From IMG/VR virus record IMGVR_UViG_3300011008_002712: a DNA stretch of 64,000 nucleotides; one strand, written 5' to 3'. The notes beneath the pieces were generated by a model. The model had not been told where the DNA came from. It did not search any database and saw only the letters and a list, made by a program, of their open reading frames with translations. How positions within the stretch are numbered: position 1 is the stretch's first letter; each line of letters starts with the position of its first letter. A program made the translations under genes and the position numbers. This document shows, piece after piece, positions 47,280-47,397 of the stretch. The DNA comes from a virus (Duplodnaviria > Caudoviricetes).

Positions 47280-47397
47280 TGGTGGATAGATCCCTTATCT
47301 GCGTCGTCGATGGATTTTAATCGCATTTCTATGTTCAACTAAAACAAGAGGATATCATTATTTTAGCCTCCCACATAATATGCTAGCAGAACTACCC
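47280..47397 (-). ncRNA. unknown RNA with Ala-type acceptor stem and ACCA end
   Basis: GGGUAG/CUAUCC-A-CCA (G3.U) with internal hairpins; lies between the promoter and the tmRNA. Confidence 0.55.

Follow-up and report, generated by a model that had tools for sequence, protein, structure and literature searches.

The question raised by this locus is what kind of RNA lies immediately upstream of a viral tmRNA gene and why an RNA without a tRNA body should end like a tRNA. The 64-kb window analyzed here (the whole stretch of 64,000 nucleotides) is part of a 416-kb virus record with 30% GC content. Its tail sheath protein shared 41% identity with the Bacillus phage G protein and 65–85% with those of uncultured relatives, and the source virus is a phage-G-like jumbo phage. 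The 416-kb genome encodes 12 tRNAs, 11 of them with encoded CCA and none of the alanine type, as well as a set of translation and RNA-upkeep functions (tmRNA, Pth, a Hen1 methyltransferase and a PolyA_pol/CCA-adding-family enzyme); no SmpB gene was found in it. An SLH-plus-porin gene at 33684–34928 resembles the OmpM outer-membrane protein of Negativicutes and suggests a host in Negativicutes; it is possibly either such a host clue or a superinfection-exclusion factor. ARAGORN also called a tRNA-Ile(AAT) at 39300–39377, possibly an atypical or decayed tRNA: its anticodon loop is odd, it does not encode CCA, and Rfam gave no match at the gathering score.

On the minus strand, the locus comprises a promoter, a leader of about 22 nt, the 118-nt element, a single U (47279), the tmRNA gene and a terminator. 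The promoter placed by the initial annotation at 47426–47454 is of the sigma-70 type and scored 11 of 12 consensus matches with an extended −10 (TG); its −35 and −10 hexamers are identical in the relative L027, and the same promoter type heads a tRNA cluster of the relative G001. The leader (47398–47419, counted from a predicted start site) ends in A(−2) U(−1), and the element occupies 47280–47397, the coordinates and terminal pairs being those annotated initially. The one-piece tmRNA (46949–47278; ARAGORN; Rfam RF00023, 103.8 bits) carries the tag ANEEYAIAA and, as annotated, no encoded CCA; it is predicted to follow the element on a common transcript, and an intrinsic terminator at 46882–46903 closes the unit. 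A(−2) U(−1) precedes both the element and the tmRNA, and bacterial RNase P prefers this leader together with RCCA (PMC4919922). The CCA-U-GGG junction between the two genes resembles the short spacers of tandem tRNAs in the window phage and G001. From the tandem-tRNA-like spacing and the RNase P-type leader and RCCA, the element occupies a tRNA-like slot.

Several other features surround the unit. A 16-nt inverted repeat with one mismatch (minus strand, 46963–46948 with 46922–46907) pairs the 3′ terminus of the tmRNA, the 3′ strand of its acceptor included, with trailer sequence 25 nt further downstream, and the precursor may thereby keep the tmRNA end masked. L027 and L028 have the repeat unchanged; it is missing from G001, whose tmRNA encodes its CCA. 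Beyond the tmRNA lies a gene for a rolling-circle-type Rep with Rep_OBD and SF3 helicase domains (45059–46432), which has iterated TCTAATA repeats upstream of it (46433–46880). The next homologs of this Rep share about 38% identity with it and come from contigs that are mostly 2–5 kb long. The block from a 118-aa ORF to Rep is missing between Pth and an XpaC-like gene in one relative and may therefore represent a plasmid-like insertion. In another related jumbo phage (ENA contig ERZ27256887), an inserted operon of four genes for pgaABCD-like polysaccharide synthesis adjoins the Pth block.

When the 118-mer was folded alone, its terminal stem P1 formed with pair probabilities of 0.97–0.99. The 5′ strand (47392–47397), which holds G3, pairs as G1-C, G2-C, G3.U, U4-A, A5-U and G6-C with a 3′ strand that continues into the discriminator A and the encoded CCA (47280–47289). 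This acceptor-type stem is 6 bp long and followed by U.U, and 7 bp are possible in the clade of G001. Folding together with the tmRNA and trailer lowered the P1 probability to about 0.18 with competing pairings, so that release of the element would depend on co-transcriptional folding. P2 (nt 8–12 with nt 96–100; 5′ strand at 47386–47390) was paired in the MFE structure, and P3 (nt 83–86 with nt 105–108; 47312–47315 with 47290–47293) in a suboptimal fold, its 3′ strand being contiguous with that of P1. P2 and P3 cross, giving a putative pseudoknot that the initial annotation had missed. The linker (nt 87–95), with conserved UCG and GAC, and the 3′ strand of P2 together cover 47298–47311. Between the 5′ strands of P2 and P3 lies a variable central arm of three stacked helices (nt 15–75, 47323–47383), closed by a 10-nt apical loop (47348–47357) with a self-complementary hexamer at 47351–47356. 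The annotated central hairpin (nt 30–40/51–61) was recovered in the fold and is supported by the changes in L027, whereas the annotated UGCG/CGCA hairpin was not favoured, its strands pairing elsewhere (nt 15–18/72–75 and 8–12/96–100).

The element has no tRNA body. ARAGORN made no tRNA call in it even at a lowered threshold, and a cloverleaf with D, anticodon and T arms was absent (ARAGORN; Rfam RF00005, E < 10), in line with the earlier description of an RNA without T-loop or anticodon arm. No Rfam family matched it at E < 10, and the models of 5S rRNA, SRP RNA, RNase P RNA, YrlA and small ribozymes were unmatched in both clades at the same threshold. Likenesses seen by eye to 5S rRNA, the P1–P4 topology of RNase P, group I P7 and small ribozymes had no Rfam support; origin as a duplicate of the tmRNA was also rejected, the two sharing only 7–8-nt words and no BLAST match. 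The terminal stem itself is unusual for this genome: a GGG..UCC-ACCA stem of at least 6 bp spanning 60–200 nt is unique in the 416 kb. When the promoter-to-tmRNA stretch was dinucleotide-shuffled 20,000 times, any 6-bp stem with ACCA adjoined the tmRNA in 0.45%, and an alanine-type stem with ACCA occurred anywhere in 0.005%. The whole-RNA folding z-score was an unremarkable −1.0 for the window element and −2.8 for the relative.

Three close relatives carry the element. The L029 copy is identical, and the L027 and L028 copies differ from the window copy at eight positions. Half of the eight changes in L027 fall at paired positions of the central arm, and all four keep pairing (G.U to A-U twice, G.U to G-C, and U-A to U.G); the rest are in loops. 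The consensus energy beat 99.6% of random placements of the same changes when these were started from the window copy and 89% when started from L027. The element diverged by 6.8%, compared with 1.5% for the tmRNA and 1.3–6.1% for neighbouring genes. It thus diverges faster than the tmRNA and most neighbouring genes, yet its paired-site changes keep pairing, which indicates constraint on structure rather than on sequence; the unchanged ends alone, with the P1 3′ strand, discriminator and CCA invariant in L027–L029, are little proof.

A second clade emerged when the tRNA regions of relatives were scanned for stems that end in NCCA but belong to no tRNA, a scan that yielded a candidate at G001:970–1078. 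The clade consists of the 504-kb phage G001 and five further contigs with 111-nt variants, its RNAs measuring 109–111 nt. In G001, the RNA has its own terminator and lies 5 kb from the tmRNA on the opposite strand. In L184, a tRNA-Lys gene takes the place of the protein gene as upstream neighbour, and sequence identity begins only about 10 nt before the RNA 5′ end; this switch of neighbour and the position at which identity starts indicate a discrete gene. Elsewhere in G001, the promoter and the tmRNA are separated by a non-coding stretch of about 220 nt (L050 1865–2085, minus) that folds into a multibranch structure with a long hairpin; this sequence has no CCA and no Rfam match and is unrelated to the element.

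The two clades have in common U7-U8-C9, G11, the linker UCG and GAC, and then C-x-GAUA. Identity anchored at the ends exceeded that of shuffles (p = 0.0001–0.006), and the global alignment was weaker (p = 0.014–0.09). P1, P2 and P3 fit both clades with P2 and P3 crossing in each, and both P2 and P3 were present in the folds of the window element before the second clade had been seen. Double changes were found at 8 of 15 core pairs (three in P1, two in P2 and three in P3; P1 also has one single change), although these reflect two lineages rather than many events and P1 was itself a selection criterion for candidates. Only one cell was unpaired across six aligned sequences at the 15 pairs. The register of P3 is ambiguous in the G001 clade, its 3′ strand being able to pair alternatively with a second UGAC. 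A structure-only descriptor (P1, P2, P3 and NCCA), its thresholds and motifs set with knowledge of both clades, matched seven sites in 1.35 Mb of related phage DNA, five of them these RNAs and two of them background lacking every shared motif; 0.4–0.7% of interior shuffles with P1 fixed also passed. With R2, a covariance model built from the G001 clade alone, the best non-self match was the L028 element with exact ends (13.9 bits, E 0.13), and the window element was again delimited at its exact ends, at a weak and not significant score (9.4 bits, E 5.2). Model R1 did not find the G001 RNA. Taken as a whole, the element is very probably a real RNA gene, and on this alignment and pairing the two clades are likely to be truly homologous; homology falls short of proof because there are only two clades and the covariance-model cross-scores are weak.

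No third clade was found in viral contigs, JGI metagenomes, phage and plasmid records, phage G or 151 bacterial genomes, and the element is absent from most relatives searched. BLAST of 50,697 phage records and of plasmids returned nothing. An exact 15-mer of the 3′ end matched viral contigs 23 times with no homologous case, the cross-clade motif pattern gave 81 matches in viral contigs of which only G001 itself was real, and both matches of a gapped pattern in JGI metagenomes were chance occurrences in coding DNA. Look-alikes in L003 and L016 gave no score with the covariance model. Models R1 and R3 did not find the RNA in G002–G010, phage G or the 151 genomes searched, which belong to a Selenomonadales-type order, two weak matches both lying inside ORFs. 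The element was not seen upstream of any of 28 bacterial tmRNA genes whose 5′ ends are similar, and in G000 no such RNA follows the homolog of the gene that precedes the G001 RNA. A stem-plus-ACCA candidate in G010 was rejected, as it lies beside a HEARO/IS605-like element and runs into a promoter. That region (L096 13200–14082) contains a HEARO-like RNA (57 bits, sub-gathering) and IS605-type end hairpins inside a tRNA cluster.

The initial annotation had taken the alanine-type end as that of an aminoacylatable RNA. Bacterial acceptor-end determinants for alanine are A73, G2-C71, G3.U70 and G4-C69 (PMC9976931 Table 1), and the window element has three of the four, position 4 being U-A. The three are unchanged in L027–L029, and the window copy is plausibly alanylatable on this basis. 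The probable homolog lacks the alanine set of G3.U70 and A73; with G73, A1-U72, G2-C71, G3-C70 and G4-C69, the G001 RNA has five of the six acceptor determinants for Trp in bacteria (PMC9976931 Table 1). If the clades are homologous, an Ala-type end in one corresponds to a Trp-type end in the other, and alanine identity is not what the family conserves. TrpRS reads the anticodon too, which the G001 RNA is missing. Carrying alanine is thus probably not the job of the RNA: of the annotated aminoacylatable non-tRNA, the discrete RNA gene and the tRNA-like acceptor end stood, whereas alanine identity as its point was not supported; the stem and ACCA are conserved in L027–L029, and the probable homolog has G3-C and G73. 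An alanine donor, or an accessory of tmRNA and Pth in ribosome rescue, would fit the retained G3.U70, A73 and G2-C71, the transcription unit common with tmRNA and the absence of a tRNA-Ala from the 416-kb genome. It is nonetheless improbable. The homolog has neither G3.U nor A73 and is unlinked to tmRNA, the T arm for binding EF-Tu or SmpB is absent, as is a phage SmpB, and at 7% divergence all 16 end bases would stay unchanged in about 30% of cases. The proposed functional cluster with Pth was likewise unsupported, Pth synteny being independent of the RNA: relatives have Pth in the same gene block without a tmRNA or element after it.

We propose instead that the element is cut out like a tRNA as a stable, non-decoding RNA whose end serves for processing and protection and whose pseudoknotted core is the working part, a reading that we regard as about evenly balanced between right and wrong. 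Element and tmRNA would be transcribed as one unit from the promoter at 47454–47426. Host RNase P would cut before G1, guided by the A-2 U-1 leader, the terminal stem and RCCA, and a second RNase P cut before the tmRNA, one base past the CCA, would free a stable 118-nt RNA. Such an RNA cannot decode, since it has neither anticodon nor T arm. The tRNA-like end would most likely be a processing and stability handle, the crossed P2/P3 core would probably bind a host or phage protein, and alanylation of the window copy may be a side effect. Between the clades, the conserved part appears to be the compact P2/P3 core, the central arm and acceptor identity varying. For the function itself, a handle joined to a working core, our model is tentative and stands a little below even.

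The main rival to this handle-and-core reading is a tRNA-end decoy, in which the acceptor end soaks up host toxins or defence nucleases attacking tRNA ends, the pseudoknot is a rigid stand-in for the tRNA body and the identity switches with the toxin of the host. Real identity sets are matched in both clades (three of four Ala and five of six Trp acceptor determinants), the tRNA-Trp of G001 itself begins with A1-U72 and carries G73, and the phage devotes 12 tRNAs, tmRNA, Pth, Hen1 and a CCA-adding-family enzyme to maintaining translation and repairing RNA. However, G-C pairs at positions 2–4 are common in acceptor stems, so that the match may partly be chance or descent; G001 already has a real tRNA-Trp and tRNA-Ala, and it is the core sequence that is conserved and not the end. 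We therefore consider a decoy unlikely, if a real contender, and its extension to a new phage RNA family, a tunable decoy with an interchangeable Ala/Trp acceptor end on a pseudoknot core that replaces the tRNA body, rather doubtful. A decayed or rearranged tRNA, or a structured tmRNA leader with a stem and CCA that assist release of the tmRNA by RNase P, would account for divergence faster than that of tmRNA, the modest z-score and the absence from most relatives searched. Its probability is low: no tRNA signal appears at E < 10, the central-arm pairing is kept at energies better than most random placements in either direction, and the homolog stands alone with a terminator and has no downstream RNA to release.

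Two further readings concern the apical loop and the junction. Palindromic and kissing-loop dimers are common among natural RNA multimers (PMC12990946), and the apical loop of both clades holds a self-complementary hexamer that differs between the clades and is invariant within each, the chance of a loop palindrome being about 8% and 5%, respectively. The element could accordingly self-associate as a kissing-loop dimer. As a small putative phage pseudoknot, it might also pass for a type III antitoxin; ToxI pseudoknots are known to have phage-borne mimics. This is quite improbable, as the palindrome was noticed post hoc, two to four six-base palindromes per RNA are about what chance gives, the hexamer duplex of the window is weak (−4.2 kcal/mol compared with −7.9 to −10.9 for HIV-type loops), and the tandem repeats of type III antitoxins are absent. 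Unrelated viral contigs (L025 3309–3400, minus; L026 400–600) contain circularly permuted (two-piece) tmRNA genes in which the spacer is 4 nt long. Such a junction also reads CCA-spacer-GGG, and the element could in principle be a remnant of one. The pairing effectively refutes this: the 3′ strand of the element pairs with its own 5′ end and has two mismatches in seven against the tmRNA 5′ strand. The T arm expected before that strand is also absent, and the tmRNA is complete without it, having both a T arm and an acceptor strand.

Among known systems, bacterial tRNA-Ala, alanine mini- and microhelices and the tRNA-like domain of tmRNA share G1-C72, G2-C71, G3.U70, A73 and CCA with the element. 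It differs from them in its 6-bp stem followed by U.U, the U-A at position 4, the absence of D, T and anticodon arms and the loss of the alanine marks in its probable homolog. Non-tRNA substrates of RNase P, such as pre-4.5S RNA and phage-induced regulatory RNAs, are alike in their terminal stem, RCCA and U(−1) leader (PMC4919922), whereas the element has no SRP, C4 or any other Rfam match and a putatively pseudoknotted core. The element suggests a tRNA-end mimic without a T arm, overlooked by tRNA finders and Rfam. YrlA-type bacterial and phage Y RNAs are tRNA mimics of about 110–140 nt that occur in phages; they keep mimics of the T- and D-loops and lack a free acceptor CCA, and the element differs from them in having no Rfam match to their models.

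The best comparison, by analogy, may be with the non-decoding, tRNA-ended stable RNAs of phage T4, RNAC (species 1, 139 nt) and RNAD (species 2, 119 nt), small RNAs of the tRNA region with an unexplained role (PMC3014915). They resemble the element in being non-decoding and in lying in a phage tRNA-type unit, one to a few nucleotides from the next stable RNA gene, RNAD being also near it in size; the element stands 1 nt before tmRNA, and its homolog follows tRNA-Lys in L184. They differ in that neither has a sequence relation to the element (BLAST, 50,697 phage records) or fits the P1/P2/P3 descriptor, T4 is of another lineage and host, and RNAC keeps the canonical T arm that the element does not have. 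Stable CCA-ended RNAs of phage tRNA regions are still unexplained, with RNAC and RNAD as the classic case, and the element is an undescribed, real-looking example of this known class that has no Rfam family. The two clades add to it a natural contrast, a retained core with exchanged end identity, so that end and core become separately testable.
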